Below the pieces are notes generated by a model. That model made no database searches, was not told where the DNA came from, and saw nothing but the letters and a program-made list of their open reading frames with translations. Shown here piece after piece: positions 1 to 23,328 of a stretch of DNA of 64,000 nt (positions within the stretch are counted from its first letter, which is position 1; each line of letters begins with the position of its first letter). Origin of the DNA: Balanoglossus misakiensis. Lineage: Eukaryota > Animalia > Hemichordata. The DNA is taken from positions 10,013,337-10,077,336 of the forward strand of contig CM082586.2 of NCBI GenBank assembly GCA_040954595.2, in the 5' to 3' direction. The position numbers and the translations under genes were made by a program.

Positions 1-373
1 TTGATTAAACACGTTTATCGGAAAATTTTGTCATTTGAAATATCTGTTTTTGCGCCCTCTACCATTTGACCAAATGATTCTCTTATTTTGGTGGCCTTTG
101 TCTGTGTATATGAGAATACTATAGTACTCTCGCATCGATGATAGTAGAAGTTGAAAACGTCTCTTGCCACGTGGCCTAGAAGAAAGGTGATCTTTAGAGT
201 AAAATAAAACAAACTATCCAGATAGGAAGCTAGAAAAGAAGTTGAATCGTTGAAATTTTATTTATTTTTATATTGTTAATATCGTTGGTGATGTTGACTG
301 GCCGACAATCTTTGTCACACCAGTATTTGCAGGTAGATTAAAACATTGCCTATTCCAGCAATAATCACAACAG
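1..373 (+). repeat. Direct-repeat copy 1 (may extend left of the window)
   Basis: Nearly identical to 16796-17165 (a few substitutions; ends ...AATAATCACAACAG). Confidence 0.92.
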
Positions 374-587
374 TCTTACTTTTTCTATCTTTGTAAGCGT
401 TAATCTTTATTGACCTCGCTTGTTGTTTTGTGTTTTTGTGTTGTTTTTGTTTTTGTTTTGTTTTTTTAGTAGTTTCATAATTTTATTTGTATTTTTAAAA
501 TGTTTTCCTGTTTTTTGTTTACTTTTTTATTTTTTTTACTATTTGTTGATTGTAATGCTGTATGGGTCTCGACTGTCGGTCCCAACT

Positions 588-1878
588 TGTCATATAATTA
601 GGTAGTACTGGAGTCAGTGGAAACCCAGGTGCCCGCATAATTTCAGGTGTAGTGACACCGTGTATTGTCATGTTAATGAATAGGGCTTCGTTAGCTAAGT
701 TTCGTGTAGTAAGAGAGCACACTTCAATTTAGGTCTTGAAGGGAGCAACAAGTCGGGTCTCCCTGCTCAGTGAGTAGAAATACTAGGGGAAATATTGCAC
801 CATACCTTGCTGTGTAATGCTGTAGCGCGCATTAGTGCTCTCAGGACCACTGTTTCTGCAATTCGAGTGGAAGTAAATTCAGTACTTCTAGAAAGCAGAA
901 TTGTGCTTATTCAGTGCAAACCGGTGTGGTCGGGCGATTGGCGTGGCTGGCATGGTCGTATGTGGTGTGGCTGGAAATTGCTCCAAGCAGAGTTCTGTGG
1001 AACCATCCTATAGACCCGGTATTGCTGAGCATGAAGTGTGGTGAAGAATTCTCGTGTAAGTAATGTATTTGTTTATTTATTTACTATAACTTAAATTTAT
1101 ATTTTATGGATATTTATGTCAAATTCGACAATTTGTAAGTAATAGGACGGTCATAGTTAAAGCATAATTTTCCATGATATCACATGTAATCATGACGCTT
1201 TAACTAGTCCAAATTTCTGATAATTATTATTGAGAAACGTCAGTATTCATTTGTGAACAGTTGCTAAGGTGGACATTTCAGTCAATGTTTGTTGATTTTT
1301 CATTCAGCCATTTAACCCAAGACTTGCATCTAACAAGTCAGTCTTCAGTGTGTTTACTTGACTACTGGAGGACTACAAGTGGTAGAAAACATGGTGTATC
1401 ACAGATTGTATGTGTAATGTGGATCGTCGCTACATCGTTCATCTATACAGGACTCCATCCCATATTGTGGTTGAATCATGATTGTTTACTATGAATGTTA
1501 TATACAGCTAAGTGACACTTACCATTGTTTAGACAATATGCAATAGACAATAAACTATAGTGATATTGTGAATATATTCATTTATGTAATATATTAAGTA
1601 ACCCATTGTATTGTATGACCAATTGTATCAGCATACCTGTACCTGCTAAATTGGTTAGGACAGAGACATTTGATATTGTGCATATTGTGCACAAAAATTA
1701 TATTCCTAGTATTATCTTTATATTATTTAATTGATTTAAATTAAATCAACTGTATTATTGTATCCGCACTGGTTTGTGTAGTTTCTCCCCATACCTTATC
1801 CACGGATGTTTACTCCTTGGCACTGAGAGCTGGTCAATATTTATCCTGGAATCAGAGGGGTGCCCTCCACCTCTGACA
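588..1878 (+). repeat. 5' LTR (~1.29 kb)
   Basis: Starts TGTCA at 588, exactly where identity to the 25-bp paralogous site at 17476-17500 ends. Ends TGACA at 1878, 2 nt before the PBS. No second LTR in the window to confirm. Confidence 0.8.
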
Positions 1879-1880
1879 TT

Positions 1881-1897
1881 TGGGGGCTCGTCCGGGA
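1881..1897 (+). promoter_or_regulatory. Primer-binding site complementary to the 3' end of tRNA-Pro
   Basis: TGGGGGCTCGTCCGGGA matches 17 nt of the canonical tRNA-Pro PBS (TGGGGGCTCGTCCGGGAT, as in MLV), directly after the LTR-terminal CA. Confidence 0.93.
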
Positions 1898-2216
1898 GTT
1901 TTATCGTTTTGTTGTGCATTTGTTTGTATACTATCATAAATTGTTGCCATATAGTGGAGACCATGGTTTTGATAGGTAGAGATTCTGCAAATTGTGAAGA
2001 CGGTGCTGGGTCTGTAGGCTGGTACTGTTACTGTATGTGCGCTTGTGGTTTCCTGCTATATAATATGGGCCGTGTTGGTTTGCGTCGTGCGTTTGGCTGT
2101 GTTGACTTGTGCTGAATGCCCTGTACTGCTAGGGGTTGTCAAACTGGGGGTTGTAAATCGCGATACAGCAAAGCATATATGCAGAAAGAATATCTAAGAT
2201 AGGGAGAAAATTTGGG

Positions 2217-3989
2217 TTGGAAGGGACTGCTTTAAAAGATTATGTTAGAGAGGAACAAATTAGACAGAGGGATCTTAGGGCTACTGAGAGAGAGGAGCAG
2301 AGAGAAGATAATAGGCGGCGCGAGGAACATGAGAGAGAGATACTGAAAATGCAAATTCACTTACAAGAATTAAAATTGAAAGGGGAAAATACAGAACAGC
2401 AGGTTACTGAAAATAATTTGGCCAAAGCGCGTGCTCCGAGACTACAGGGTTTTCGTGAGGATGTTGATGATATGGATGCGTACCTTCAACGTTTTCAGCG
2501 CTACGCCACTGCTCAGAAGTGGGAAAAAGATGACTGGGGGTGAATCTCAGTGCATATTGTTACAAGGTAAGGATGTATCCACATACAACCAAATGCCTGC
2601 AGCGTCTGCAAATAATTATGATGAATTGAAACCAGAGTTATTGAGGGCTTACCAGTTAAGTGAGGAGAGTTTTCATGACAAGTTCCGTTCGTGTATGCCA
2701 CATTATGATGAAAGTGCTCAAAAGTTTATGGACCGTATTGGTGACTATTTGGGCAGATGGGTAGAACTGGCTGGTACTCCAAAGACGTACAATGGGCTTA
2801 CAGATCTGTTACTTCGAGAGCAGTTTATTGGAGTATGTTCCAGAGACATGGCAATGTTCATTAGAGAGCGACGGCCAGAGAATGTCCAAGAGATGGTATC
2901 TACTGCCTCAAAATACTTAGATGCCCGAGGGTGGTGGAAACTGCCAAGTAATGCCAAGAATAATCCAAGGAGCCAGCCGACAGCAAATACCAAGCCTTCT
3001 GTATATCCAAATCAAGTAAATAAGTTTAATAACAAAACCAATGGTTCCCATGTTTTTAAAGGTACGTGCTTCGTATGTGGTAAAGGTGGTCATATGGCCA
3101 AAGATTGTAGAAGTAAGCCAAAGATGCATAAGACGGCGGTATTGTTAACTGAAGAAGATAGAAACTATCCACCTAAACAAGAATGTACACATTGGGGCAA
3201 CCGTCAACAGCCCAGGGGACTAGACACTGGTTATGCATGTATGGTGGTAGCAATGGAAATAGATAAAACAGATGCAACACTGAATAAGGAGTTCGTGTTA
3301 CCATGTGGTCATAAGCTCCCAGTGATGAGTGCTGCTTGTAGTGCCCATGGAGTGAAGAAGATGCCGGTAATGAAGGGATTGCTCGATGGTAAGCTGGTTA
3401 GCGTTTTGCGTGATAGTGGGTGTAGTAGCGTGGTAGTTCGAAGAAGTCTGGTGTCAAGTAATCAGCTGACTGGTGAGTACAGGACGTGTGTTCTGATAGA
3501 TGGGACTATTAGAAGAGTACCTGTAGCCTCTATAAAAGTTGATACCCCTTACTTTGTTGGTGATGTTACTGCACTGTGCATGATGAACCATGTGTATGAT
3601 TTAATACTGGGCAACATTGATGGTGTATCTGACCCTTCGAATCCTGATACTACATGGCAGGAACCATTGCCGACATGTAGACTGTGTACAACTGTTGGAC
3701 AGGTACCAGGTTTAGCAAATGCTGTGGAGACCAGAGCCCAGAAGATAGCCAACCAAAAACCAATCAGAGAGCTTAAAGTACCTAAAGCTGTTGGTGAAGT
3801 GGTGATGCCAGGGAAGCTTCAACAAGCTCAAGAAGAAGACTCCACTCTTGACAAACTACGTGAGAAGGCAATTTTGGGTGACGAGAAAGTGACTAGGAAT
3901 GGAGGTAGGTTGAAGTTCATCATGAAAGATGGGATCCTGTACAGAGAGTTCAATTCGCCAATGGTCCAATTTGGTGAAAAGCTGTTACA
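2217..3989 (+). pseudogene. gag-protease-(integrase N-terminal linker) of the Gmr1-like element
   Basis: Coiled-coil N-terminus, DAYLQRFQRYA..W gag motif, frameshift near 2540, capsid/SCAN-like region (LLREQF...FIRERRP), CFVCGKGGHMAKDC zinc knuckle, VLRDSGCS aspartic protease, LQQAQEEDSTL...KDGILYR. The last ~33 aa of ORF 2431-4092 are read-through into the inserted transposon. Confidence 0.9.
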
Positions 3990-4029
3990 CACTGCGGGAA
4001 ATACTAGAGCTATGTTGGGCAGTATTCCG
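3990..4029 (+). repeat. Left bipartite terminal inverted repeat
   Basis: CACTGCGG - 18 nt - TGGGCAGTATTCCG; the inner block starts at nt 27 from the end (4016). Confidence 0.85.
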
Positions 4030-4073
4030 CGAAGCGCGAGCTCCCATGTTCACCATAGCAACGCATTGCCAAG

Positions 4074-4724
4074 ATGGCGGCGCCCGTGTTGATCGATGCC
4101 GAGAAAGTTATAAAACGCAAATTGCGAGAGGCAAAATCTGTGCTTAAACGTAAAAAATGCGTGTCGGACAATCTGTATATACACCCACTCTTTGATGAAC
4201 TTGAGGATGTGACAACAAGGGCCATATTTCGAAACGACAAGCTGTCAAAGGACAAGATTCGTTGGCGTGACGTCGCCGTATTTCCCATGTTTCAGCGTGA
4301 TATGACCTACTGGCAGAAGACCTTCTACGCTCGGCTGTCAACATCCCCGTCGTTAAGGTCACCATGGCAAAGCAGCTTTACACGACAAATGCCGAGGGAA
4401 GTATTTGATGTTTTTCATCAGTTTGCTACTCGGACCGGTTTTGGTATCGACGAGAAGACCTCCAGGGCTATCATAACCTTGACCTTCACAAGTTCCTTGA
4501 AGCTATTGTATGTGATACGGAAAGGTTATTGCTACGAGGGCGCTATCGGTCAGCATACAGAGAATATCCTAGAGAAGAAAGTCCGTGGAAAGAGGGTAGC
4601 TGTTATATTCACACCTGAGAAGCCCTGTGTTGTGAAATATTTTATCAACAGGGAGACTGTTGCTGTTAGATTCAGCTTTGGTGCCTGGAACAAACATGGA
4701 ATTCCATTACATCCAGAGAACTGA
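4074..4724 (+). CDS. 216-aa basic protein of unknown function, second gene of the DNA transposon
   Basis: Uninterrupted ORF with a good ATG context (AAGATGGCG), more GC-rich than the AT-rich sequence downstream, AATAAA at ~4853. No domain recognised; no kelch or PHD pattern seen. Confidence 0.7.
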   Translation: MAAPVLIDAEKVIKRKLREAKSVLKRKKCVSDNLYIHPLFDELEDVTTRAIFRNDKLSKDKIRWRDVAVFPMFQRDMTYWQKTFYARLSTSPSLRSPWQSSFTRQMPREVFDVFHQFATRTGFGIDEKTSRAIITLTFTSSLKLLYVIRKGYCYEGAIGQHTENILEKKVRGKRVAVIFTPEKPCVVKYFINRETVAVRFSFGAWNKHGIPLHPEN

Positions 4725-5576
4725 ACCCTATTGATTTTTCACACTGATTCAACCCATCTGAGGAACATTTTTTTCCTGATCTGTGGCACATGTTGTTCAG
4801 TGTAGATGTATCAGTCTGTCAAGACAGTCCTCTCACAATTGACATATATTCAAATAAAAAAAGGAAAATTAGAAGACTCAAAAATTCATCACTTGTCTTT
4901 ATTTATCTACATTCAATACAAATGAACAGATAATGTTTACAAAATTTCCTAAACTGTAAAATTCTTTTTTTCCATCATTATTGTAACATAGATTTTTCAT
5001 TAGTTTCAGAAAAAAATGTATGTTACCTACAATCAACATTGATAAGTCAATCAAAACTGCTCATCTAACAGTTAACCAGGATTTCTGGTCTAAATTTAAT
5101 TAATATTTACAATTAATTCCATGACAAAATTTATAAATATCAAGAATTTGATGAGACTTAATTCTTTATTTTTTCACAAATTCATTAAAATTTCGTGCAG
5201 GTGCAGAATAAACAACTCCTCAAGAAAAATGTAAAACTTTTCTATCAAGCTTATGTATGTCATACATTTTAATTTTGCAAAGCACTGCAATCACTATACG
5301 ATTAAGGGTTTATTCACAATACTTAATAGTGGTAAGATAAGTTTCAATTTCCCTGTCCCCATACATGCACACATATACAAAATCCCATAAGAAACATATC
5401 ATCTCCAGTTCAAAAAGTGTGAATTCATGTGATTTGTGATCTCCATTTTTATTAAATGCAGCTCTCAACTACAGATGAGTCTTTATAATTCTGTAATGTA
5501 ATTAATACTATAGTTATCCTTTAATTCTAAAGTAGCACACAGTGACACAATCCACTGTTTCAAATTCAATCATTGT

Positions 5577-8500
5577 TCACAGCATAAGTTTCTTGAGTTT
5601 ATTTGATATTTTACCAGTGACAGCTGCTTTTTTTATGTCATCCATAATTGGGTCAACACATATTTCACAGGCAGTCATTGTTTCATTTTTTTAAATTGCC
5701 ACACATACAGTAGCCTGCATTCTCATAATATCGACTGGGAATGTATTTTTCTTTTTCTTTAAGCTCAAATTGACCTACATTTGCATTTCTATAGTTGTCA
5801 GCTTTTGGACTTTTGTTCCTCAGCCAAAAAAGCATCACATATTCGTGTCGAAATATGAGGGCCCACCTATTTTGAGGTGTAGAATTTTCACTGAATTCTA
5901 GCAGGCGTAGATGCTTTGCCTCTCTGCCTTCCATTGTGTTTAGGCCTAATCCCAGACTGAATTGCTTATAGATACTAGTGGTGTGTTTTGGGACTACATA
6001 ACCAATGTGCCACACAGTATTATTGACATTCAGAAACAGGGAATGTAGATTAAAGTACCACCGACACTTATGCCTAAGTACAAGCAAATCTCCCTCATTT
6101 ATGTTGAATCGTGAGAATAACAAAGTGATATCTCTAAGCAAGATACCAGTATATGTGTAGAGAGCTAATTGAGCCCGACGCTTTGGTCTGTCTGTATCGC
6201 TTCTCAATGCTAATACCAATCCTATGAAATGCCAAGCAAGTTTGCGAGACTCCTCACCAGTGAAGCGATAAACCACATTAATGTTGGCATTTGACTTGAC
6301 ACTATTTTCATTGAAGTATTTTACAATCTTATTATACAACTTTCCAGCTTTTACTTGATATTTTAGGGCAGACAGGAATTTGTACAGATATGACTCGTTA
6401 GGTAGATTCTCAATTTTAACTCCATTTTCACGACCCTTTTCCGAAGTGTGGGCAACTGCGTCAATCAGTAATCGTTGGAAGTAGTATTGCCATGCATTGT
6501 TCTTTAAATGCAATGGCTCAGCCTTGGCACAATCAATAAATCTACCCAACGGTGGTACAAATTCCTGTCTTGACCTCAGACTGGCTATAAATTGTGTGAT
6601 TTTGGGTCGCACTGTTTTGGGCTTTCCAGTTTTAATTTTCTTAGTTGACTTCAACTTTTCAACAGCTTCTGCATCTTTAATTCTTTTCTGATATTTCCAT
6701 TCATCCCACTTCTGACCTGGGCCAATTTCTGCTCCAATACAATCAATATCATTTTTGGAACGTTAGCAAATGAGCTGAAATACTTTGCTGCATTGCTTAG
6801 TTCTCCAGACACACTGGCCAATCCCTTCTGATCAAAGGGTAAAAGTGACACCTGAAAAGTTACATCAAGACTGCCAACTTTATATTTACGTTTCTCAATA
6901 CACTCAAGGTCTTTTGACAATGCAATTGCAAATTCAATCATTATGGGGTCATCCTCTTTTATGTTTGCCCCTAATAGGAGAAAATTGTGGTCTGGGCTAG
7001 CAACACGGTGGGTCACATTCAAGAAACTAACTAGCCATGCAGTGGCCTGTCCATGTTTGCCAAACGGAGCCCCGTCAGCACCTATACTGATTTGAAATGA
7101 GCCCTCCTGTTTACCGAACCAGTTAAGAATATCAGGCTGTGTTTCCCCCATATTTAAATATAAACTGGCAATCTTAATAAGCAACTCCTCAGGGTTTCTT
7201 TTTAAGCCGACTTGTTTGCCTTCAGATGATATAATTGGCTCAAGATTTCCAATGTCAAGGTTACTTACATACTGTACAACTTTTGTGTATGGGAGCAGTC
7301 TTGGTATTCTACAGCCAGAATGAATTTCTAATGCTTTCCTAGGATGTTTCAAGTTGGAGAACATCTGAAGTTCACTCTGCCTCAGACAGTTATATTTTCG
7401 TTTGGATAGTACTCCGCCCTCATACATAGTTCTGACACTCCTCACCAAATTGTTCTCACTTTTCTCAAATTTACTGATGTATTTATCAAATACTGATGGC
7501 ATTACTTTTTTACTGATTTGGGGAGAGGTTCTGAAGAATGTTTTCATTTGGTCAGGAGTGGCAGAATTAACAAGAGTATACCACAAACCATCAAGTGCTG
7601 CTTTTGGTGGATGTAGTACATTCGGTTTATTTATACCTTTGGCTGGGCTTACATCTGTAGTTGCTACATGAATATTTATGGCTGCTGATAAGGTTTCACA
7701 CCTACGTTCATACTGTTGACGTCGCGACAGCTTCAAAGATTCACTATTATCTGCACATACTTCAGTGTTCTTGTGGACCCATTTAGAGCGTTTCACATTA
7801 ACAACATCAACAGGAATCTGAAAGATTAAGTGTGTGATAAATATATACTAATTAGAATATAATCATTATATATAAAATAAAATCTTCTTACAAGTTAATC
7901 ATTAATTTAAATGTCCTTGATAAGAAATACACACGTGTAGCCTGTATTTTTCTGACAACTTCTGCAATAAAAATCCTAAAAAATATACATAGTTTGTTGG
8001 AAAACCTAGATGTTTTGCATCAAAGCTGAACCCATTTTGTTATCATTGTTTACACAGGATCATGTGACATGAAGTTCAAAAAGCGAATTTGGGCTAAAAT
8101 TTGAAGAGGATTTATACAAATCTGAGATTTTTAAAATTATGACTAAGTCTATTTATCTGATCTAGCTTACCTTTCTCTTATTATTCTTTGTAGCTAAGAT
8201 CTCACAAATCTTACTGTTCTTCTTCTCTAGTCTAGCTAGCTGGGTTGAGGATCTTTTTACTAGTCTCCTAGCTGCACTCAACTTATTCAACTTATCCTGA
8301 ATTATGCTTTCTTCCTCATCTCTCTTTCTCTTTCTCTGTCTACACCACTCTCCTAAGTTAAACCTGTGTTTAGTCTGTCCTCTCTTTGTTCTAACTACCA
8401 ATAGGTTGTTGGCCACGCTCCCAGACAAAGATCTAGTCTTCAATTTCTCCTGATATAGTTGTTGTAAACACTTCTCTTCAGCTACCTGTCTCGCTATCTT

Positions 8501-8614
8501 TTGGTCCTTTGCCCACTGGCCTATGTTGAAGTAACTTTTCCCTTTTCTATTCGGCATAACAATAGACAAACTTTTAAGAAGTGCGCTACTCCTGTTGAAT
8601 AGTTTGCCCCACAT
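5577..8614 (-). pseudogene. Spliced RAG1/Transib/Chapaev-like DDE transposase (~890 aa after repairing two 1-bp frameshifts)
   Basis: Exon 8614-8171 (phase-0 donor AAG|GTAAG), intron 8170-7818, exon 7817-5577 (TTTCAG| acceptor, phase 0). Motifs collinear with the RAG1 core: LSRRQQYERR (NBD-like), ISIGADG (D600-like), PFDQK (D708-like), EPLH (H795-like), RFTGEESRK (MNGNFARK-like), MEGREAKH (E962-like). Frameshifts at ~6760 (FANV/SKNDID) and in the A7 run at ~5690. Confidence 0.8.
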
Positions 8615-9422
8615 GGCTCTAAATCTATACCTGAAAAGGGTGAACAAGAGAAATATCTTTACAATAATTATCTATCCGAGGGAAGCAAAAACAAAACACC
8701 TGCTCATTATACTTCCTCCAGAAATTGAGGTCAAAGGTGACATAGAAAGAATGTGGGTAACCTTACCATAACAATCTCGCCCATTCATTTTTTTCTTATT
8801 TCGTTTTCACCCTCGAATTTCCAGCGAATTATATCAAGAATATATTTTAGCACAAACTATTGGTTTCTGATTTTTCAGTTACGGTCTTATTTTCTGTCAA
8901 TTCTATGAACAATATCACCATGTCGCCGAAAATTCGAAGCGCCGCCATTACAATCAATGTAACCCGTGCTGCTGCCAAGGAACACACAGGGTCGTATATT
9001 TTCGCTTGGTATGATTTCGTCATATTGCTTGTAGCAGCATTTTAAACATGGAATCCTATGTTTACGTATAAAAGACTAAATTCGTATGGTTTTCAAATTG
9101 AAAAAAACAATTCTGTGAAGCTGAATCGTTGTAATTTTTAGTGTTTGTTTATGGTTGCTTAGGACGGCTTCTGCTATAGCAACGGCCAGGGACTGTCAGC
9201 GGGTGATCAAAATGTTCAAGTTATTTGGCTGATACACATAAATAACACAGCAGAATCGCAACTTTATTTCATATTGTCTCTGACATCTTGCTAATTTTAC
9301 TAAACAAAACTTGGAATAAAGCAATATTACTCACCGAATTATGCTGTGCATCGACAGCTGTGTTCGATCGCGAACGCCATTACTGTGTCTAATTAAATAT
9401 TCATGAGCTTCATAGGCTGCCA

Positions 9423-9463
9423 CGGAAATACTGCCCATAGGTGGCGTCGTTCAAGCTGTAGTG
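9423..9463 (-). repeat. Right bipartite terminal inverted repeat
   Basis: Reverse complement reads CACTACAG - 18 nt - TGGGCAGTATTTCCG; the inner block also starts at nt 27 from the end. Confidence 0.85.
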
Positions 9464-10545
9464 ACAGGTGGTGGTTCCCAGAGTGTATCGTAACCAGGTG
9501 ATGAGACTAGCCCATGAATCAGTGCTGGGTGGTCACCACGGAACTCACAAGACCACAGACAAGATCCTCAGCAACTTCGTTTGGCCTGGGCTAACATCAG
9601 ATGTTTCCCGTTACTGTCAGTCCTGTGATTCATGTCAACGGACACAACCAAAGGGACGGGTGACCAAGGTACCACTTGGAAGTATGCCACTAATAGATAT
9701 CCCTTTCCTACGTATTGCAGTAGACCTGGTTGGCCCTATTCATCCATGCACTGAACGCAAGAATAGGTACATACTTACTGTTGTTGATTATGCAACACGC
9801 TATCCGGAGGCTGTTGCATTGACTAACATTGATACCAAGACTGTTGCAGAGGCGCTCCTGGACATCTACTCAAGAGTGGGGTGTCCACGTGAAATTCTGA
9901 CAGATCAAGGAACTCAATTTACATCAGATGTGATGCGTGAGGTCAGCCGGCTTTTGTCTATAAAGCAGATGACTACCACCCCATACCACCCAGCATTCAA
10001 TGGTCTAGTGGAACGGTTCAATGGTACATTGAAACTCATGCTCAGGAAGATGTGTGAGGAACGTCCAACATATTGGGATCGTTATCTGAATGCTTTACTA
10101 TTTGCCTACAGAGAAACGCCTCAATCGAGCACAGGATTCTCTCCGTTTGAGTTACTTTATGGGAGGAGTGTGCGTGGTCCAATGGCTATCTTGAAAGAAC
10201 TATGGACTGGAGAGATCAGTGAACCAGAAACCAAAACGACTTATCAATACATCCTTGATCTTCAAAAGAAATTAAAGAAGGCATGCGATTTAGCAAGACA
10301 AGAACTGAAGATATCACAAGGCAAATACAAGTCCTACTACAATAGAAAGGCCAAATGGAGGAAGTTCAACAAAGGTGACGAGGTGTTATTGCTACTACCT
10401 ACTGACCATAATAAACTACTTATGCACTGGAAGGGTCCTTTTCCAGTGGTGGAGAAAGCGAGCAATATGGATTACAAGATTGACTTTGGTCATAGGGTGA
10501 AAACATTCCATGCCAACCTGTTGAAGAGGTACTATCGAAGAACTG
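9464..10545 (+). pseudogene. Integrase domain of the Gmr1-like element
   Basis: HHCC (LAHESVLGGHHG...CQSCDSC), DDE (AVDLVGP, LTDQGTQF, VERFNGTLK), GPF/Y module (WKGPFPV...FHANLLK). Confidence 0.95.
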
Positions 10546-10759
10546 ATCAGCTAGATGAAGTATCAGCTGGACTTCTTGAGATTGTGTGTGTATCTGTGAT
10601 AGATGAGCAGAGTTATGAATCTTCAGAAGTACAAGAGAACACAGGGGTTAAAGTAAACGATGACTTACTGCGGGTTCCTGCATTCAAGCAGAAAGAATTT
10701 GCTGCAGATGTGAATGTATGTGACAACTTGTCAGACATACAGAAGCAAGTGGTGAGGAG

Positions 10760-11475
10760 GTTGCTGATCAATTACAAAGATATGTTAACTGATATTCGTG
10801 GTAACACCAACCTGGGTTTCCATGACATCAAGTTGATGGATCCAACACCAGTATGCAGTAGGCCATACCCCATCCCTCATGCACTCCGTGAAGCAGTGAA
10901 AGATGAAGTCAAAACGATGATTAAGATGGGAGTAGCTGAACCTTCAGAGAGTCCATATGCTGTTCCACTGGTAATGGTGAAGAAATCTGATGGGTCCAAT
11001 CGTTGTTGTGTTGACATGAGAAAGCTCAATCGCATAACAGTGTTTGATGCAGAGCCTACACCAGACCTGAGTGAGCTTTTTGCTTTTTGCTAAGTTATCC
11101 AAGGATCACTATTTCACTAAAGTAGATCTCAGCAAAGAATATTGGCAAGTCCCGTTGACTGATAATTCTAAACAATTGACGGCATTTATCACGCATGATG
11201 GGCTATACCAATTTATCAAAATGCCTTTCGGACTTGTAAATAGTGCTGCGACTTTTAGCAGAATTATGAGAAGATTGTTAAGAGATATGAAGAACGTAGA
11301 CAACTATATCGATCACATACTGATCCACACTGCATCATGGGAAGAACATATCAAGACAATTACAGATTTGATGAGCAGACTACGAAAGGCAAAGTTAACA
11401 GCGAGACCAACTAAGTGTTATGTGGGTTATGAGCAGATCGATTTCCTGGGTCATGTGGTTGGTCATGGTGAACTA
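10760..11475 (+). pseudogene. Reverse transcriptase domain (frameshifted, catalytic YIDD changed to YIDH, truncated)
   Basis: SPYAVPLVMVKKSDGSNRCCVDMRKLN, frameshift ~11080, DLSKEYWQV, MPFGLVNSAATF, YIDHIL, KC...FLGH. Confidence 0.93.
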
Positions 11476-11623
11476 GTCCTGTTTCAAAATGACCTACATT
11501 ACAGGTCCTATGCACACGTATTACATGTTCTGATTGGTTTATCCACTTCTCTAAGGTCCACTTGCGGCTCGCTGATTGGAGGGACCTTATGTGTTAGGTC
11601 ATATTACTATGTATTATTCACCA

Positions 11624-11829
11624 GACCTTGTAGGTTAGGTCTTATTACAATGCATTATTCACTTTACAGCTCCCTGATTGGTTAATGTGTAGGTCTGGTC
11701 CTCCAGTGTTCACTGCCTCATTATGCAGGACCTTGTAGGTTAGGTCTTATTAATATGTATTTATTCACCATACAGCTCCCTGATTGGTTAACGTGTCAGT
11801 CTGGTCCCCCCAGTGTTCACTGCCTCATT
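11624..11829 (+). repeat. Two ~105-bp tandem units (plus a degenerate upstream partial) in the sequence that replaces the retroelement 3' half
   Basis: GACCTTGTAGGTTAGGTCTTATTA...CAGCTCCCTGATTGGTTAA...CCAGTGTTCACTGCCTCATT starting at 11624 and at 11729. Confidence 0.8.
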
Positions 11830-12821
11830 GTGAAATGTCCCATGTGCTTCCTGGCTAGCGTTGTGGTAACATATTATTCGGGGTGTCCGCAGATCGTTCA
11901 TTGATTTTCTGAGAAATAGCCTAACTGATACTATCTCCAACATAAACCGCACCCTGGAAAGATTAAATGATCTTTTAGGTGGACTTTGAAAATCTGATTA
12001 ACTCATCTAAGCATTTTAGCTAAGTTGTATATTTTTTAATTATAATCATACAAAATACTTAAAAAATAAAAACAATGTTCAGTTTTAATACCCACTGATG
12101 AGGGGAAACATCAGTTTCAAATTCTTTTCATGGGAGCGCTTGAGCAGAGTTATGAGTTTTGCTCTGTGAAAGAAAATGGGGGGATTTCAAAATTTTGGCA
12201 GTTCGGAAGGGGGATTTCAAAATATTTCGGGTTGTGAAAGGGGGGGGGGGCATGTGAAAATTAGCGGTAAAAGATGAATTCCCCCCCCCCCCCTCCAGAG
12301 GTGTTTGTGAATGCAGCCTAAGAAAGAAAAAATGTGAAATGGGTCAAATATGGGCCGGACGTGCCCATTCAACTCAATTTACTTTTGTTTGCTTTAAGTA
12401 GGAATTGATCACAGCTATATTTATTTTGGACACCTGAGCGACAAGAAAACAATCTGATTCTACATTTTAAAAAGCGTCATTGGAAAAGCACTGCAATTTT
12501 GTTTCTTGCTTTAAAAAAGTTTGGGGTGGCATGTAATAATTAAGGTGTGTCTAAATTACTAATTTGGTGCACCTCAAAGCCCTTAGCCAATGTAAATTAT
12601 ATCCTGCATTGTATTCATGAAGGATATCCTCCCGCGAGGTCAATGCCATTCAATGTCAAACAGTCTCAACAAAGACCATTGGACACTCATAGCCGTTTTG
12701 TATGAAAGTGACTGGAGTACGAGATGAGTTTCATGACAACAACAAATCATGCTCAGTCTCGCTGCAGGGTCTATAATTTCAATAACGGCTAGACGCTGGA
12801 CACTATCTTAGGTAACACTTT

Positions 12822-12877
12822 AGGGTCATAGTGCTGGAACGACATGTTTAAACAGGTCGTTCCGGCACTCTGACCCT
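12822..12877. repeat. 56-bp near-perfect palindrome (mini foldback element)
   Basis: AGGGTCATAGTGCTGGAACGACATGTTT|AAACAGGTCGTTCCGGCACTCTGACCCT: 28-bp arms, 3 mismatches, no loop. Confidence 0.85.
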
Positions 12878-13371
12878 TTCGGCCCCAGTCGTTTCAGCCC
12901 CCATTTTCCACGACCCAAGTCGTTACAGCCCGGACAGTAACACCCCAAACATTTCAACACTTATCAGGGAAGACCTTAGCCCAACTATTAAAACTTGGCT
13001 TGAACCTACTTAAGTTCTCCGCATGAAATATGAGCGAGCGTTGTCAGAGGACGACAGCTACGCACACTTTGGGCATGACCGAATCAAACAGAATTGAATA
13101 TTCTATATTCGGAAAAAACACCTTATCTCCGTTTTGCCGTTGACAAACCGATTTCTGTCATGACAGTTACTCCCGGGGACTGTGACAGACCATATACAGA
13201 CAGTAGAGGCCGCGCGCTGGGGGTCTACACAAGTCACTACAGCTGATGTAAGCAAGTACAACATGCTTTGCTTGCAGGAATGTTCCATTTTCAATAGAGG
13301 GGTGTGTATATTCAGAGGGAATGTCAGTCGGGGCCCTGGCTGGCAACATGCGGCGTATATATTGACAATCT

Positions 13372-14299
13372 TAGCCGGGAGACCAGGGCGTCGATCTAAA
13401 ATACAACGCTCGGGGACAGTCGAGCAAGTCCTGCTGAGCTGAAAGATAGTAGTCTTGGCAACGATCGAGGTCGCTTAGTAACAAATGGATAACGAGTGAT
13501 CTATCAAATGTTGACGGGCGCCAGTGGTTGGATGATATAATTAAAGGCACGTAAGCTGTAACTGGATAAAAAATTAAAGTTTTAAATAATCTCATATATG
13601 CTTTTAATTATGTCTATTAAATGCTATTTCATGATAATATATCAAGCTCAACACTTATTTATGACAAAATGGCCAAAAATTAAAGAAAAACGAAAATTCC
13701 TGCAATTTTAAAAAAAGCGCAATATTGCAATGAAAAATGAAAATCTGATGTCTCAGTGGTGTACATTTACTTCCATGAGCTCAAGTGGATGAGATCATGT
13801 TTTGTTTATGAAGTTTCACAACCGGAAATGCAACATTTTCATTGTTTCTTGCATTTTCCCACGGTGGCGGCCATAATCGCTTGCGGCAAAGCTTTATTAT
13901 TTATCTGGTTAAAACTTGCATATGCACTCATACTTAGGGTTTATAATGCTTGTGTATTGTTCACTACCTCCATCTGCATGGACTAATGGTAGTGCAGTTT
14001 GAAACAAAAATTATGAAAATTATCCCAAAAGTTACACCTTACGTGCCTTTAACAAAGCTTGGTTATGAATATTCATACACTTTCAAAACCACTCCCACAT
14101 CCCATCGCGGGAATTTCACACATGACTCCACCTCTATTTCCTTATTTAGAAGGCGACGATGTCATGTGGTTAACATTGAGTGACCAATTAGCTTACACGC
14201 AAGATTTACCACACGTGTCGTTCTACGAACAGAATTCTGTTCGTAAATAGAGACTGTCCCCGGGCGTTTCTTTTCCCCGACGCCCTGGTCTCCAGGCTA
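13372..14299. mobile_element. Non-autonomous DNA transposon with TAG..CTA ends and a 9-bp TSD (AcademH-like; MULE not excluded)
   Basis: ~50-bp interrupted TIRs TAGCC(G/T)GGAGACCAGGGCGTCG...ACGC(T/C)CGGGGACAGTC; perfect TSD TGACAATCT at 13363-13371 and 14300-14308. Confidence 0.85.
13545..14048. mobile_element. Kolobok-type MITE nested in the previous element
   Basis: TTAA TSD on both sides; 19-bp TIR AGGCACGTAAG(C/G)TGTAACT with 1 mismatch; purine-purine terminus, unlike piggyBac CCC. Confidence 0.85.
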
Positions 14300-14610
14300 T
14301 GACAATCTCGCTGATAGGCGCAGCTGGAATTTATGTTTCTGTGGTATGATTATTGTATTTTATCAATGCACAATCACGATGGGCGAGTTTCAAGCAAGCA
14401 ATTGGATTCGCTTCAATCCCTCACTAAAATCTAGACTGCACCACTGTATAATAACACAATACAGTCTTCTAGCCTCATGGTATAAACAGGAACTCTTGTC
14501 TGCTGGACATCCGTGTACTTTGGTCTACTGAGTGAACGCGTTACGTATAGAGGTAGCGCAAAGTGAAAACCTATTTAAGGCAGCCACAACAATCAGTGTT
14601 GACGTACATA

Positions 14611-14715
14611 CAATCTGACTAAAATCGCAGTTGGTATGACGACAGCATACTAATAATACTGTACCACATAAGTAAAAGACGTCGTCGTACTATACATCTG
14701 ATTTTATTCAGATTA
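14611..14715. repeat. Degenerate palindromic mini-element (AATCTGA...TCAGATT family)
   Basis: Ends AATCTGACTAAAATC / GATTTTATTCAGATT; shares CGACAGCATA and TACATCTGATTTTA with the copy at 14976. Confidence 0.65.
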
Positions 14716-14732
14716 CTGCATATTTGCATATA

Positions 14733-14939
14733 CTGTGAAACAAGTTATTTTCGCGAGCAATACATTTTCGCGAGATACGTGAGAGCCAAAATGGTATGAA
14801 AATAAGAGGTCGCATAATTATTTTTGAAGATAACGATGCAGTGAATGAAATAAGAGAACGCGAAAATTAATACTCGCGAAACAGTAGCCTCTCTCGATAT
14901 CGTGAAAATTTCAACTCGCTAAAATAAAGTGTTTTACAG
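14733..14939. mobile_element. TA-target MITE (Tc1/mariner, pogo/Tc2-like ends) with subterminal TTTTCGCGA repeats
   Basis: TA|CTGTGAAACA...TGTTTTACAG|TA; two TTTTCGCGAG motifs on the left and inverted CGCGAAAA-type motifs on the right. Confidence 0.75.
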
Positions 14940-14975
14940 TAGTTTATGTATGTAAAGTGTTCCTGATGTTAACAC

Positions 14976-15084
14976 AATCTGTTTGAAATCAGATGTAGGC
15001 CTAGGGAATGGCGACGTAGTTTTTTGATGCTGCGACAGCATAAAAAACACGTCGCCGTTCCCTACATCTGATTTTAATCAGATT
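14976..15084. repeat. ~108-bp palindromic mini-element
   Basis: AATCTG..AAATCAGATGTAGG...GGGAATGGCGACGT.GTTTTTT.ATGCTG / CAGCATAAAAAACACGTCGCCGTTCCCTACATCTGATTTTAATCAGATT form a long hairpin. Confidence 0.75.
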
Positions 15085-15700
15085 AGCGTTAACATAACTT
15101 TATCAGAATAAGTTAACGCCATAACTTTGACAGAATAAGAGTTGCCTCAAACGGCTCTAACCGAATTTCCATTAATAGCAGAACAAACAAGCTGTAATCA
15201 ATACGCCAACCTTTAAAATATTACTTTAGAAAGTTTGTATTCATACTTTCTTCAAGTTGTCATAACGCTAACCCGAAATGTGTTTTAGTATTGCCTTTGT
15301 ATTAATGGGCTAGATTCATGGCGTTATATGTCATAAATTAAAAAGACAACCCTTATTGTTTTTGATAATATTTATGTCGGAGAATCCACAATGAAAAATA
15401 TGTATTTTCAATTTCATAACTCAAAATAATTTTCAAATCCATGACCTTATTTTCAACTCCAGTGATCGTACATCCTGAACCTTGTTCCAGTAAATGATTG
15501 GTCATTACAGGGTTAATGGGCACTCTCCCGTTCTCTTCCTCCGCAGTTTCATTCATGTTCTTGTTTGACGGAAATGGGTGTGACCAGACGCTTGAATGTT
15601 TTCATGTGGGTTGAGTTGTTCATCGGGAACGGCCTCCTGGTGTGTCTGTACAGGTACGCAAGGAGAAACTGCCCACAAGAAGCTGCGAGTGAAACTATTT

Positions 15701-15760
15701 AAGGTAGTATGTGCCTCGCGGTCCGAGATTCTGACAAATGATAGTCCTCAAAACTTTTTC
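15701..15760 (+). mobile_element. Possible single Kolobok-like terminus
   Basis: TTAA followed by GGTAGTATGTGCCTCG; no matching opposite end found. Confidence 0.3.
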
Positions 15761-16795
15761 AAGTCATTGATTTACTAAAGTGTGTGGTGAGTCTCTTTGA
15801 AAACAACAACAATATTACTCATCATATTGTAATTTTTTGAAACTATAAAATGAAGTTGACAATGCACCAAACAGATTCTATTTATTTCTTCATGACCATG
15901 TTCACCCCAAGGTCATATGGACCTGCAAGTATATGCCAGAGCCAGAGTCGACATTACCGAAGCCAGAGTTTAAAGCTTACAGGTCACCCCTTGCCAGCTC
16001 ATGACTAGCTAAACTGCCATGGATGCCAAGAGATATATGACTACGGTAACCTGTAGATGGTTTCAGTATGTTTGAAGAAAGTGGTGGCGCACTTTTGGCT
16101 ACATTTGAAATGGCTATGGTACCAGTGGTTGAATTTGCAAAGGTGACCTTTGACCTGGCATCTTTAAAGATATTAAAGAACGATTTACCATTCCTTGTTG
16201 TCGTAAAATGACATCTGTAATAACTTATATTTTATCTGTTCATCTTGAAGTACTATATATTTAAACGCCAATTTTCCATTGCCAATCAAGTTTTTACAAA
16301 TAAATTGTAATATGCATGTTGATTTTACAAAAACTCCTTACTTCCAAGTGAATTCTGTTACACATCACGTAACTATTTTCCCCACGAATTCTTCAGTTGC
16401 TAACTCGGAAATTTCATATATTGGGCAGAAATTGGATACATTACCCAGCCATTAAAATTACAGTTTTCTATTTTAATTGATCGTCCATAACTTCAAGTAC
16501 TTTGACTTGACATACATTAAAAACATCATGGTGAATAAATAAAAATTATTTGATTATCTAATTGTGCATGTTTACATGGTTTTATTTTAGTATGCTGGGT
16601 ACTTAATGTCTAATGGCTCGCTGATTTTATACTGTTCAAGATGACAATCTAATTTTAGTTTTCAGCTGATAATTGAAATCAATGATTCAAAAAAATTGAA
16701 TTTTGACATGAATAAACTTCTTGTTCATGGCAGTTGCTGTGTTTTGTTTCATTTGTATTCAATTTTTGCAAGCATACCATTGAGCACAGTTTGAT

Positions 16796-17165
16796 TTGAT
16801 TAAACACGTTTATCGGAAAATTTTGTCATTTGAAATATCTGTTTTTGCGCCCTCTACCATTTGACCAAATGATTCTCTTATTTTGGTGGCCTTTGTCTGT
16901 GTATATGAGAATACTATAGTACTCTCGCATCGATCATAGTAGAAGTTGATAACGTCTCTTGCCACGTGGCCTGGAAGAAAGGCGATCTTTAGAGTAAAAA
17001 AAACAAACTATCCAGATAGGAAGCTAGAAAAGAAGTTGAATCGTTGAAATTTTATTTATTTTATATTGTTAATATCGTTGGTGATGTTGACTGGCCGACA
17101 ATCTTTGTCACACGAGTCTTTGCAGGCAGATTAAAACATTGCCTATTCCAGCAATAATCACAACA
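16796..17165 (+). repeat. Direct-repeat copy 2 of the window start
   Basis: TTGATTAAACACGTTTATCGG...GCAATAATCACAACAG matches 1-373. Confidence 0.92.
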
Positions 17166-18149
17166 GGAGTGTGTCACACAGGAGACAGTTGGGATTATAG
17201 TCATAATCTACCTTAGTTTGTTGTCAACAACCAGATGTGGTCGCATTCCGTGCATCCGTGCATATTTTGGAACAACGACTCTATCGAACAGACGTATTTC
17301 AAACACCTTGGAGAAAAACATCGATGACCAGTGGAATTGACTGTCGCTTGAAATCCGATAGGAATACACCTGTTTACGGTGGACGATACCGACACTCCTC
17401 TGCTAACTTAATCTGCTCTGCTAACTATACCTGCTTTGATTAAGTTGCGTCTAAAACTTTCCTTACAATACAATGTGGGTCTCGACTGTCGGTCCCAACT
17501 ATAGCGACGACAGCCTCGGTATGTTTCGCCGATAGCAATCCGGAGATGAAATTTGCATACAGCAATATCTTTCAAGATAAATAATTTATGTCCTAAAGGT
17601 ATTACTTTTAGTGGTCTGACGGAGACGTTTTCTGCTGTAACATGCAAAACCTGCGGCGGACCTGAGGTCATGTTGCGAACACTGTAGTTTTGTTACGCCC
17701 GCCATCCTTCGGACGTTTACCTCATCGGGGCTTCTTTGGGGAATCAGCCACGTCCGAAGGGTGAGAGTGTAAATTCTCTCCCTCTCCTTCTCCACCCAAC
17801 ATATTCATAGAGTCAGAGAGAGGTACCCGGCATATCGTAAACTTAACGAGAGGCATAACGAGACTTTCAACAAGTTTTCCGAGTAACACAAATAGTTGTG
17901 GTTTATTACTGGTCACACGTAAGAATTACACGACTCTATCCATGCTCGTTGACTCCCGTCACGGATCTCCGGTGATAATAATGTGATATCAAATTTCACC
18001 ACCTCTTATTAATACGTTAGTCAAGTATTATGTCATAAAAGGAACACGTCATCTTAATATTTCTTAAACATGAACTTAGCGCGTGATATCTCTATCTCGT
18101 TCTGACATGTATCAATTACACAATCTTGTTTACTCTGAGTCAAATACCT

Positions 18150-20179: not shown

Positions 20180-23100
20180 TAGTGCGGTATGGTATGTCAT
20201 GAAAAACAGCTCCCGTAGGATTGTTGTGCTAAAATTGATTTTTTTGCTGTTTTGGCTTCTATTGGGACCCAACTACCCGAAAATGATGGGGTGCAATTTT
20301 AAGGGCCCCTCCATCATATTTTTCTCGGGGGGGGGGGGTACTTCCGTTTTGTGGTATGATGTGTATTCCCGTAGGATTTTTGTGCTAAAATTGATTTTTT
20401 TGCTGTTTTGGCTTCTATGGGGACCCAACTACCCGAAAATGATGGGGTGCAATTTTTAGGGCCCCTCCATCATATTTTTTCGGGGGGGGGGGGTCGTCAC
20501 TCCTGTTTTGGCCTCCCCGAAGATATTTATTCACCTATCTACTCCATTTTCGTAGAATTTTCTGCTAAAGAATTTTTTTTTTGCTGTTTTGACACCTGGT
20601 CACAAAAGATCACATGCAAATTTTAGGGCCCCTCTATTACATTTGTGGGGGGGGGGGCACTTACATTCCGACAATCTTAACGGTATTTGTTCACCTATAC
20701 CGTGTATTCTCGTAGGAGTTTTTGCTAATAGTTATTTGTTTTGTTTGCTGTTTTGGTTTCAATGATGAATAAACATCCCCAAAATGATGGAAATCAATTT
20801 GTTGGACCCCTCCATCACATTTTCTTGCAGGGGGGGGGGGGGTCACTTTAGTTTTAGCAGCCCTGGAGATATTTGTTCATAGTGTGACATGTGTATTTGT
20901 AAAGGATTTCTTCCAATTTCTTTTTTTTTAACTTCTATGGGGACCTAACTGCTCAAAAATGAGGTCAAATTTTAGGGCCTCTCCACATATTGGGAATCTT
21001 AAATATTAGACGGTTTATGGGTAAACATATCAGTTACCTACATTTGTATCAGTTGTCATATATACTACAGCGCTATCTTATTTTTATAAATATACTTAGT
21101 TGAATTTTGACACTAACAAATCAACCACAAATATCTCTCTGGTTTGGACTTAGCATAATATACCTCCCCTCACCTTGGACCGCCACCCAACTCATCACCA
21201 CACTCATGTTTTCTATGGTTTACAAAAATATAGTATACTAGGCTATACCAAATAGTGAACACCTATTGCCTGGCCATGAGGGCCATAGCAGCCGTTTATT
21301 ACACCCGAGGGGCCGTGAGTTACCAGAATCATATGCATATGATTCTGGTAACTTTTTCGTTAAGAGTTGTTTATTCTTTCGTAGCACAATCAATGTCTGA
21401 GATATTTACCATTGTACTAAAATTCTCATCGATATAAGTCTGTGCATAAACTCTGAAGTACGTTTTAATCAACACTTGTTTTTTGGGGTATTAAAACGAT
21501 ATTCAGTTGAACTCATTTCAAAGTTAAATACTGTCGTAAATAAAGCCATATCAGTTGAAGTATTGTCTATTTTAAAGTAGTATTTTCAAAATTTTCATGC
21601 CAATAGCAAAATAGTGCTGTAAAAAGCCCTTGAACTATGTCTTACTTCTAAAACTTGTTTTGGTAAACATTAACAATATCAAATTTGGCTCATTTTGTAG
21701 CTCAATACTACTGAAAATAAAACAAGTCTGTGAACTACATCTCAGTTTTATTACTAAATACATATTGGCTATTTTCTTAGCACCGTAAGCAGCGTTTTAC
21801 GTTCCAGTTCGATAGCTATTAGGACATTTTGCAATAAACTACAGAATTAATATGTAGATAAAAATAAGATTTGCGTGATCTGTGAAAAGGGTGCCACCCC
21901 TTCATCACAATGAGAGATAAATCATACGCAACAAATTGTCCTGAACTTCCCCCAATCAAAAAGAATGGGTGGAAATCGGAGAATGGCGTGTTTTATCCAG
22001 TAAAATGTCTTGCTCTCCCTGCACCAAAGGCAGTACTAGAGCTTATCAAATGTGGCTGCAAAGCAGGTTGTAGGGGACGTTGCAGTTGCTCAAAGAATGA
22101 TTTACTATGTACTCCCCTCTGCAAATGCTATGGTGGAGACTGAAAACCAGGGGGAAATGTTCTTGAAGATAACGACACTGGCGATGAGTAGATCAAACAG
22201 AACTGGGTTTCGTGAAAATGATGATTGAGAATACCAAGATATCAGAAAAGAATCGTTATGCTTCTTGGGTTGTTTATTGCACCGTCCGTGGTAGGGAGGG
22301 TGCCTCAAGGGTCCATTTTATGAGATGGGACTGTAGCTCGGAAAATAAACTAAAATACACATTATGTACTTTATTATATATAAAGGAGTTTTAATTTACC
22401 TTAGTATACTAAATTTAGAATAAACGAAAAAATCTAAGATAAAAAAAAACTACTGTTACAACGGGTTGGCGAAAACAAATATAGAGAACCCCCCCCCCCC
22501 CCCCCCACCAAAAAATGTGGTAAAGGGGTCCAACATTTTGCACACCATCACTTTTCGGCAGTCAGTCTGCATTCAAGCCAAAGGAGCAAACCAAATTGCA
22601 AGAAATACCACGACAATACTAACCGTATAGTAAATAGGTGAATAAGTATCTTCAGGGTGGCCAAAACAGAAATGATTACCCTCCCCCCCCCAAGACATGA
22701 TGGAAGGTTCCAAAAATTTGAACCCCATCATTTTAGTTCTGGTGGAGCCCCATTGAAACCAAAACATCAAAGAAAAATAATATTTTTAGCAAAATATTCT
22801 ATGAGAAGGGAGTAAATAGGCCAACAAACAACTTCGGAGTGGCCAAAATGGAAGTGCCCCCCCCCCAAATAAAAAATGATGGAGGGGCCCTATAATTTGC
22901 ACCCGATTATTTTTGGCCAGGTTGGTCTCCTCCAAAGCAAACACAACAAAAACAAATTAATTGTAGCCCAAATTCCCATGATGATAGAGTAAATAGGTGA
23001 ACAAATATCCTCGAGTGACAAAAACAGAAGAGACCCCCCGAAAAAAAATTGATGGAGGGGCCCTAAAAATTGCACCCCATGATTTTTGGGTAGTTGGGTC

Positions 23101-23328
23101 CCCATTGAAGCCAAACAGCAAAAAAAATCAATTTTAGCAGAAAAATCCTACGGGAATACACATCATACCACAAAACGGAAGTACCCCCCCCCCAGAAAAA
23201 TATGATGGAGGGGCCCTTAAAATTGCACCCCATCATTTTCGGGTAGTTGGGTCCCCGTAGAAGCCAAAACAGCAAAAAAATCAATTTTAGCACAAAAATC
23301 CTACGGGAATACACATCATACCACACTA
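20180..23328 (+). mobile_element. Non-autonomous Academ (AcademX-type) transposon inserted in the satellite
   Basis: TAGTG(C/T)GGTATG termini; 3-bp TSD AGT (20177-20179, 23329-23331) that restores a satellite monomer; ~0.8-kb TIRs built from ~155-bp subrepeats; internal Cys-rich coding remnant. Confidence 0.85.
21910..22143 (+). pseudogene. C-terminal Cys8 (CXC/tesmin-like) zinc-finger remnant of an Academ transposase
   Basis: GW...PAPKAVLELIKCGCKAGCRGRCSCSKNDLLCTPLCKC, followed by an acidic tail in a shifted frame; this pattern is typical of the C-terminus of AcademX proteins. Confidence 0.75.

Follow-up and report, generated by a model that had tools for sequence, protein, structure and literature searches.

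A two-gene transposon family with two-part inverted ends, 3-bp target duplications and a transposase of predicted RAG1-like fold, represented in Balanoglossus misakiensis

The ends of a 5,474-bp DNA transposon of Balanoglossus misakiensis are best described as a terminal inverted repeat (TIR) of approximately 33-37 bp with two constrained zones, between which lies a stretch that tolerates sequence change and hardly varies in length. A comparison with the ends of related elements confirms that this two-part end is a real feature, which reflects a constraint across the whole family.

The element occupies positions 3990-9463 of the window, by which we mean the whole 64,000-nucleotide stretch of DNA analysed, and it is flanked on both sides by ACA as a 3-bp target site duplication (TSD). 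When duplication lengths of 1-6 nt are tried, 1 or 3 nt alone are compatible with the flanks. Its gene content is a frameshifted transposase and a convergent gene of 216 aa, ORF A (Table 1), and the ORF list contains no other long ORF inside the element. In run X1, both element junctions are bridged by single contigs, and no empty-site joint is present among the X1 contigs listed. The insertion host is a Gypsy-like retrotransposon, as the neighbouring ORFs carry Gypsy-type gag/protease and integrase domains. This LTR retrotransposon is split by the element into 2380-3989 and 9464-11685, with SCAN-like, zinc knuckle, protease and integrase parts, and its integrase is located ahead of the RT-like start. 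Farther along, positions 18200-64000 form a large AT-rich satellite with units of 27-28, 78 and 105 bp, the orientation of which before about 24,270 is the reverse of that after 24,349, and which includes an inverted pair of 153-156-bp repeats at 20211-20494 and 23044-23325.

Table 1. Features of the element and its borders, in window coordinates.
Feature	Position	Strand	Remark
Left TSD ACA	3987..3989	+	flank comparison
Left terminal block CACTGCGGG	3990..3998	+	family motif CACGCYGGG
Left spacer, division of the preliminary description	3998..4015	+	4/18 identical to right spacer
Left inner block, nt 27-40	4016..4029	+	G29 G30 C31 in register with family block nt 23-33
ORF A, 216 aa, intact	4074..4724	+	convergent with transposase
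Transposase, C-terminal frame	5683..6762	-	LH motif, third acidic residue, Cys-rich tail
Transposase main exon, N-terminal frame	6762..7817	-	frameshift near 6760
Candidate upstream transposase exon	8171..8671	-	
Right inner block, nt 27-41	9423..9437	-	
Right spacer, 18 nt	9438..9455	-	
Right terminal block CACTACAG	9456..9463	-	
Right TSD ACA	9464..9466	+	

The letters and coordinates of both ends are all as a preliminary description of this DNA had given them. In the ungapped alignment, the left and right ends agree at 6/8 terminal positions, at 4/18 spacer positions and at 11/11 positions of nt 27-37, beyond which they differ in length by 1 nt; this bears out the earlier claim that the spacers are equal, at 18 nt, and that the inner block lies at nt 27 of both ends. 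An in-register run of at least 11 is found in 4 of 200,000 random 52-nt pairs drawn from window positions 1-18000. With at most two mismatches, the 14-nt inner block has one copy per strand in the 64 kb, and these copies are the two ends, while GGGCAGTATT with at most one mismatch gives three matches against 0.57 expected. The absence of this TIR from the 25 longest of 93 inverted pairs is consistent with the earlier expectation that standard TIR finders miss it.

The family comparison is based on 81 loci, comprising the best 80 of 235 confirmed metagenome stretches and one locus from genome contigs, among which the arrangement of two genes is found again together with CACGCYGGG ends and TSDs of 3 bp. 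These ends were first revealed by a scan for CAC..GTG pairs, the score of which rewarded inner matches; the ends were then chosen by nt 1-9 and position only. The best pairs in L008, L009, L013, L018, L019, L025, L027 and L046 are internal inverted repeats rather than ends and were dropped. Long internal inverted repeats are seen in L005-L013, L018/L019/L025/L046 and L027, where they overlap both ORF A and the sequence that lies upstream of the transposase, and they could yield hairpin RNA.

Among the 14 two-ended loci, an exact 3-bp TSD is present in seven, a matching one is missing in six and one locus is untestable, and a 4- or 5-bp TSD occurs in none of the 14. The six loci without a TSD are likely chimeric contigs because left flanks are shared while right flanks differ; the left flank is common to L006, L007 and L009, and another is common to L011 and L014. 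Identical ends are preceded by differing flanks in L018/L025/L043, L021/L022 and L039/L052, which fixes the boundary of the element independently. The eight TSDs are ACA, TAG, ATT, AGC, GAT, ATT, ATA and one TTA. The distance from tip to gene is 70-309 nt on the ORF A side and 740-3100 nt on the other side. In L015, a member of 4,152 bp, the TSD is present and both ORFs are open. A complete 8.5-kb member with a 3-bp TSD (L081, 4310-12851) is the sole match in genome contigs and stands in a bin labelled Anaerolineae, and it is most likely DNA of an animal host in that bin. ORF A fragments or a second family-type end lie upstream in L011 (1168-1260), L006 (2395), L008 (56), L009 (668) and L013 (914), which suggests nested or clustered insertions.

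For the positional analysis, 44 ends were entered, one per visibly identical set of copies, and the removal of four near-duplicates left 40; two matches of score 7 were left out, second-choice ones were kept and the window element was excluded. The information content per position in these 40 ends is 0.24 bit at nt 10-21, 0.43 bit at nt 22-34 and 0.10 bit at nt 35-60, compared with 0.05 bit in shifted controls. G29 is present in 28/40 ends, accompanied by A/T at nt 24-26 and by G/C at nt 30-31. A leave-one-locus-out matrix covering nt 23-33, the limits of which were set after viewing the information profile, was scored at 39 offsets; the best offset is 0 in 23/40 ends and within 1 nt in 28/40. 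The other 12 ends have their best offset more than 1 nt away, and four of them are second-choice matches that are probably false ends.

Kinship was controlled by comparing 17 x 15 ends across the two halves of a quick transposase tree, the loci being either placed in that tree or evidently close to ones that are. The cross-clade identity is 0.83 at nt 1-9, 0.29 at nt 10-22, 0.42 at nt 23-33, 0.27 at nt 34-46 and 0.25 at nt 47-60, and it peaks at shift 0. The spacer is thus at background, and the block at nt 23-33 is above it. The alignment of termini from many relatives, as called for by the preliminary description, therefore gives a spacer that keeps its length and is free in sequence. The heptamer-spacer-nonamer logic read into the ends stands in so far as a free spacer of fixed length is found across clades; in its detail it gives way to a family pattern in which a 9-nt tip is followed by approximately 13 free nt and then by the block at nt 23-33. 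At the relatives' ends, GGGCAGTATT is absent at the right distance in 80 loci, and its letters and the 8/18/13 split are local to the window element. Both window ends have G29 G30 C31, which line up with the block of the family. With a matrix of nt 27-33, offset 0 ranks first of 44 for both window ends by a thin margin (3.9 versus 3.7 and 2.9), and with the matrix of nt 23-33 it ranks just second and third of 39.

A second element in X1/X2 aligns with the window element from 4015 on, and its CAC start lies exactly 25 nt earlier, with a different 18-nt spacer and no gap ahead of the inner block. This element has a much lower depth, comes from one sample, which may be the one that the window DNA derives from, and may belong to another genome; its inner block is known as an aligned stretch rather than letter by letter. 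Its spacer holds a reversed near-copy of its own tip. The matches of X1/X2 to related elements cover window positions 4015-4128, 4675-4722, 6303-6388, 6767-6863 and 7564-7607, and at least one further related element, probably two, is present in the sample.

The left spacer had also been described as holding an inverted copy of the inner block that could make the two ends functionally asymmetric. Such a copy exists in part: left nt 8-16 (3997-4005) are a reversed 9/9 match to right nt 32-40, the distal half of the right inner block, and 23 of 20,000 spacer shuffles reach this value in a post hoc test. Within the left end itself, the inverted match extends over 6 nt only and misses the GGC core. 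It is not a family trait, as inverted matches of at least 6 nt within one end are found in 4/40 ends of relatives. Because the reversed 9-mer is coreless, missing in the second element of X1/X2 and rare in relatives, a functional asymmetry is unsupported. A family-wide hairpin in the ends was considered and rejected (mean z -0.45, with 3/40 below -2).

The transposase is read in two minus-strand frames, 6651-7847 and 5683-6762. At the frameshift, X1 has the sequence of the window and a variant contig of X2 has one extra base (window 6758), which is due either to another allele or to an error on one side. The candidate upstream exon is joined by a phase-0 GT-AG intron (8170-7818) that was read from the sequence, and it matches the N-terminus of the relative P0018 weakly (E 3e-4). 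A search restricted to long proteins gives 23 relatives at 35-43% identity. The first D lies at about 7074-7076, the second D at about 6831-6833 and the third acidic residue, within GREAKH, at about 5920-5922; the D, D and E motifs, as well as the LH motif, are present in all 22 full-length relatives and in the window. Downstream of the second D, 0/22 relatives have the C(2)C zinc motif, and the window lacks it as well. The H(3-4)H before the E is present in 7/22 relatives and not in the window, with the second H kept in all, and a Cys-rich CxCG..CxxC tail is present in 18/22 relatives. A basic helical segment near 7520-7820, ahead of the catalytic core, is conserved (alignment A5). In Pfam, no family is common to the 24 members at E values up to 5, which divergence may explain, and PDB searches by sequence with the profiles A2, A4 and A5 yield nothing meaningful and no RAG1 match. 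A search of viral contigs for relatives found none. A quick tree holds family members only, and the window element sits on a long branch, the placement of which is unsure.

The transposase family is predicted to have a RAG1/Transib fold. The modelled protein is the relative P0001 (pLDDT 87), which is 45% and 42% identical to the two frames of the window. Foldseek places RAG1 first for this model (E 5.5e-13), and VIA-align against 48,161 chains also gives RAG1 (Z 20.7, rmsd 4.4, 474 residues aligned), followed by ProtoRAG RAG1L (19.1), HzTransib (12.2), the P element (11.4) and the next structure at 7.3; the statement that the model is nearest to RAG1 is valid among solved folds only, because these lists hold no CACTA or Chapaev structure. 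The Atlas features lie with unnamed, mostly cnidarian clusters (0.98) and then with RAG1 RNase-H clusters (0.92-0.95). In the alignment with 6oem_A (Z 17.0, rmsd 6.9), model residues 17-639 are paired with RAG1 401-1007, and most other RAG1 alignments begin no earlier than model residue 62-68. RAG1 401-458, which we take to be within the nonamer-binding domain (NBD), is covered by this single structural alignment, and a sequence profile of the N-terminal segment finds no PDB match.

The start of ORF A lies 84 nt inward of the left tip, and the encoded product is basic. A word-index search found no relatives of it, and a full HMMER search then gave 81, mostly of about 210 aa. The tail-to-tail arrangement of ORF A with the transposase is found in 31/81 loci, and in 27/30 of those with at least 1.5 kb of downstream sequence. 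The predicted structure of the 216-aa protein (pLDDT 92) consists of a helical hairpin and an alpha/beta domain and is not kelch-like. Pfam gives nothing for the ORF A family, Foldseek gives no fold match at E 0.001, and the VIA-align lists are dominated by helical-hairpin matches (best Z 7.7 and 6.7). Language-model features lie closest to Argonaute N/L1-domain clusters (0.93, at a low recognition of 1361), and two weak Foldseek matches are short prokaryotic Argonautes (E 0.13-0.14); no Argonaute is present in the best 50 of either VIA-align list. The likeness to an Argonaute N domain is a lead only. The likeliest guess for the role of ORF A is that of an accessory subunit.

Taken together, we consider it fairly probable that this is a two-gene element with 3-bp TSDs, likely mobilized by cut-and-paste, in which a DDE enzyme of predicted RAG1 fold reads the CAC tip together with a block about 23-37 bp in. 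The catalytic core would bind nt 1-9, and, by analogy to RAG and Transib, the cut would fall next to the CAC and leave a hairpin on the flank, with insertion at a 3-bp stagger. The inner block may be held by a DNA-binding part that is tethered within the proteins of the element itself. The likeliest candidate is the basic helical segment that directly precedes the core, a position taken in RAG1 by the nonamer-binding domain. In this proposal, the distance is constrained and the intervening letters are free because a tethered part holds the inner block. Both ends have the same distance, within 1 nt, and therefore no rule of the 12/23 kind is expected.

It is unlikely that the inner block is bound instead by ORF A, as a helper in the manner of TnpA, or by the Cys-rich tail at the C-terminus of the transposase. 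ORF A, with its basic product, does accompany the transposase in 27/30 informative loci, and the tail is kept in 18/22 relatives. However, the inner block is single at each end and at a fixed distance, unlike the repeated subterminal motifs of CACTA elements. The C-terminal tail of ProtoRAG is a clamp for the TIR, but, according to PMC10629977, it touches the 9-10 bp beside the heptamer, and that zone is the least conserved in the present family.

An ordinary continuous TIR of approximately 35 bp with a drifted middle, the spacing of which is kept by the rarity of indels alone, is more improbable still. Five of the 11 left-right pairs (L007, L015, L019, L026 and L079) are near-continuous to nt 33, which agrees with such a TIR, as do the 1-nt shifts between the ends of L070 and of L081, the 1-nt shift listed likewise for L075, and an end of L014 that is 8 nt short and yet has its TSD. 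Summed within elements, the identity is 90/143 at nt 10-22 versus 83/121 at nt 23-33, which shows that the spacer, too, is frequently homogenised within one element. Against drift alone, the window element, whose TSD is perfect and whose ORF A is intact, has 14/18 mismatches beside 11/11 matches. A dip of this kind in the spacer recurs in L002 (with 10/11 matches in the inner block), L011 and L023, which together with the window are the clearly bipartite pairs, and across clades both the spacer and the positions past nt 34 fall to background identity, which nt 23-33 do not. Because 5/11 pairs are near-continuous to nt 33, the "spacer" is to be read as the tolerant middle of the TIR. Two outcomes had been named in advance as contrary to a two-part end, namely continuous TIR identity across the spacer and a freely varying position of the inner block; neither is found for the family as a whole, since the spacer length is kept, its sequence is free and the second element agrees.

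It is very improbable that the inner block serves the inward-facing genes as a promoter or as a site for a host factor and is kept near the end for reasons unrelated to transposition: the short distance from the left tip to ORF A and GCCATY at nt 30-35 of 5/40 ends (L011, L021, L023, L061 and L072), which resembles a YY1-type site, are in its favour, but the block keeps its distance to the tip at both ends while its distance to the genes varies, its letters are family-specific and agree between the ends of one element (11/11 in the window, 10/11 in L002), and GCCATY is as frequent elsewhere in nt 10-55 (six times).

Transib termini of 38 bp contain a heptamer, a 23-bp spacer and a nonamer and are mostly alike at both ends (PMC1131882), and spaced TIRs, both symmetric and asymmetric, occur in both Transib subgroups (PMC9435367). 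Symmetric spaced TIRs were therefore already described, and the logic of the present ends is not new. The family resembles Transib in its CAC tip, spacer and second block, in being mostly symmetric and in its predicted fold (Z 12.2). It differs in its tip, CACGCYGGG as opposed to CACAATG, in its inner block, WWW-x-x-GSC as opposed to an A-rich nonamer, in its conserved second gene, in a zinc motif that is mostly lost and in a TSD of 3 bp, whereas that of Transib is typically 5 bp. The 3-bp TSD does not exclude descent from Transib, because 3-bp TSDs are reported in two Transib families (bioRxiv 2026.08.26.747230).

TSDs of 5 bp and a RAG2-like partner characterise RAGL elements (PMC7204232, PMC10629977), and ProtoRAG ends have blocks of 7 bp and 9 bp with spacers of 27/31 bp, the shortening of which lowers activity (PMC8289069). 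The likeness to RAGL/ProtoRAG consists in the best predicted fold match (P0001), CAC tips, two blocks with a spacer and two convergent genes. In contrast, the TSD here is 3 bp (in the window and 7/14 two-ended loci), the spacers are equal and the inner block is nearer to the tip, the partner is an alpha/beta protein of about 210 aa rather than a kelch propeller, C(2)C is found in 0/22 relatives, and RAG1 is not matched by sequence in Pfam or PDB. The GCCATY inner block of 5/40 ends is like the start of the ProtoRAG TR5 block, GCCATCTTG (PMC8289069).

Chapaev and Chapaev3 share CAC..GTG ends, a 3-4-bp TSD, the DDE residues and the LH motif with the family (PMC4079192), which differs from them in lacking C(2)C, in having H(3-4)H in 7/22 relatives and in its second gene; the target duplication of Chapaev3 is TWA (PMC4079192), as in 1/8 TSDs here. 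Elements with CAC ends and a 3-bp TSD are filed as EnSpm (PMC12730594), and the likeness to EnSpm/CACTA lies in the CAC(T) ends, the 3-bp TSD and the two genes. The CA..TG termini, the TSD within 2-5 bp and the DDE triad of the CMCT groups are all present, and these groups have C(2)C and H(3-4)H in common (PMC12730594). The lack of C(2)C distinguishes the family from EnSpm/CACTA and CMCT (Mirage, Plavaka, ESTA, Lanisha), as may the lack of any Pfam family in 24 members, and one fixed inner block distinguishes it from EnSpm/CACTA; the separation from CACTA and Chapaev is drawn from their descriptions rather than from sequences or structures.

No description of the family was found in the openly searchable literature, and the accessible part of bioRxiv 2021.09.26.461848 contains nothing specific to it; the family may be catalogued in Repbase, Repbase Reports or subscription journals, for example as EnSpm or Chapaev. 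It looks to be an undescribed lineage with a predicted RAG1 fold, a 3-bp TSD, a decayed zinc site without C(2)C and a partner other than RAG2. A more far-reaching reading, which we regard as possible but doubtful, is that of an unnamed RAG1-fold lineage nearer to RAG1 than Transib is, in which the zinc site disappeared, the TSD became 3 bp long and a tail-to-tail non-RAG2 partner (perhaps Argonaute N-domain-like) was acquired independently, and the symmetric spaced ends of which are read by an NBD-like arm.

End-finders that require a continuous TIR, and classifiers based on Pfam or C(2)C, can overlook this family, which was found in 81 loci. Compact intact members with symmetric spaced ends and a different partner gene, such as L015, allow tests, outside RAG and Transib, of the spacer rules, of the second contact with DNA and of whether a partner is required. 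Such tests bear on two questions about the origin of V(D)J recombination, namely how RAG acquired its recognition of a tip and a distant block with a free spacer between them, and how a partner subunit was added to it. If the more far-reaching reading is true, the family would represent another case, besides RAG itself, in which nature built a two-protein enzyme of the RAG type.
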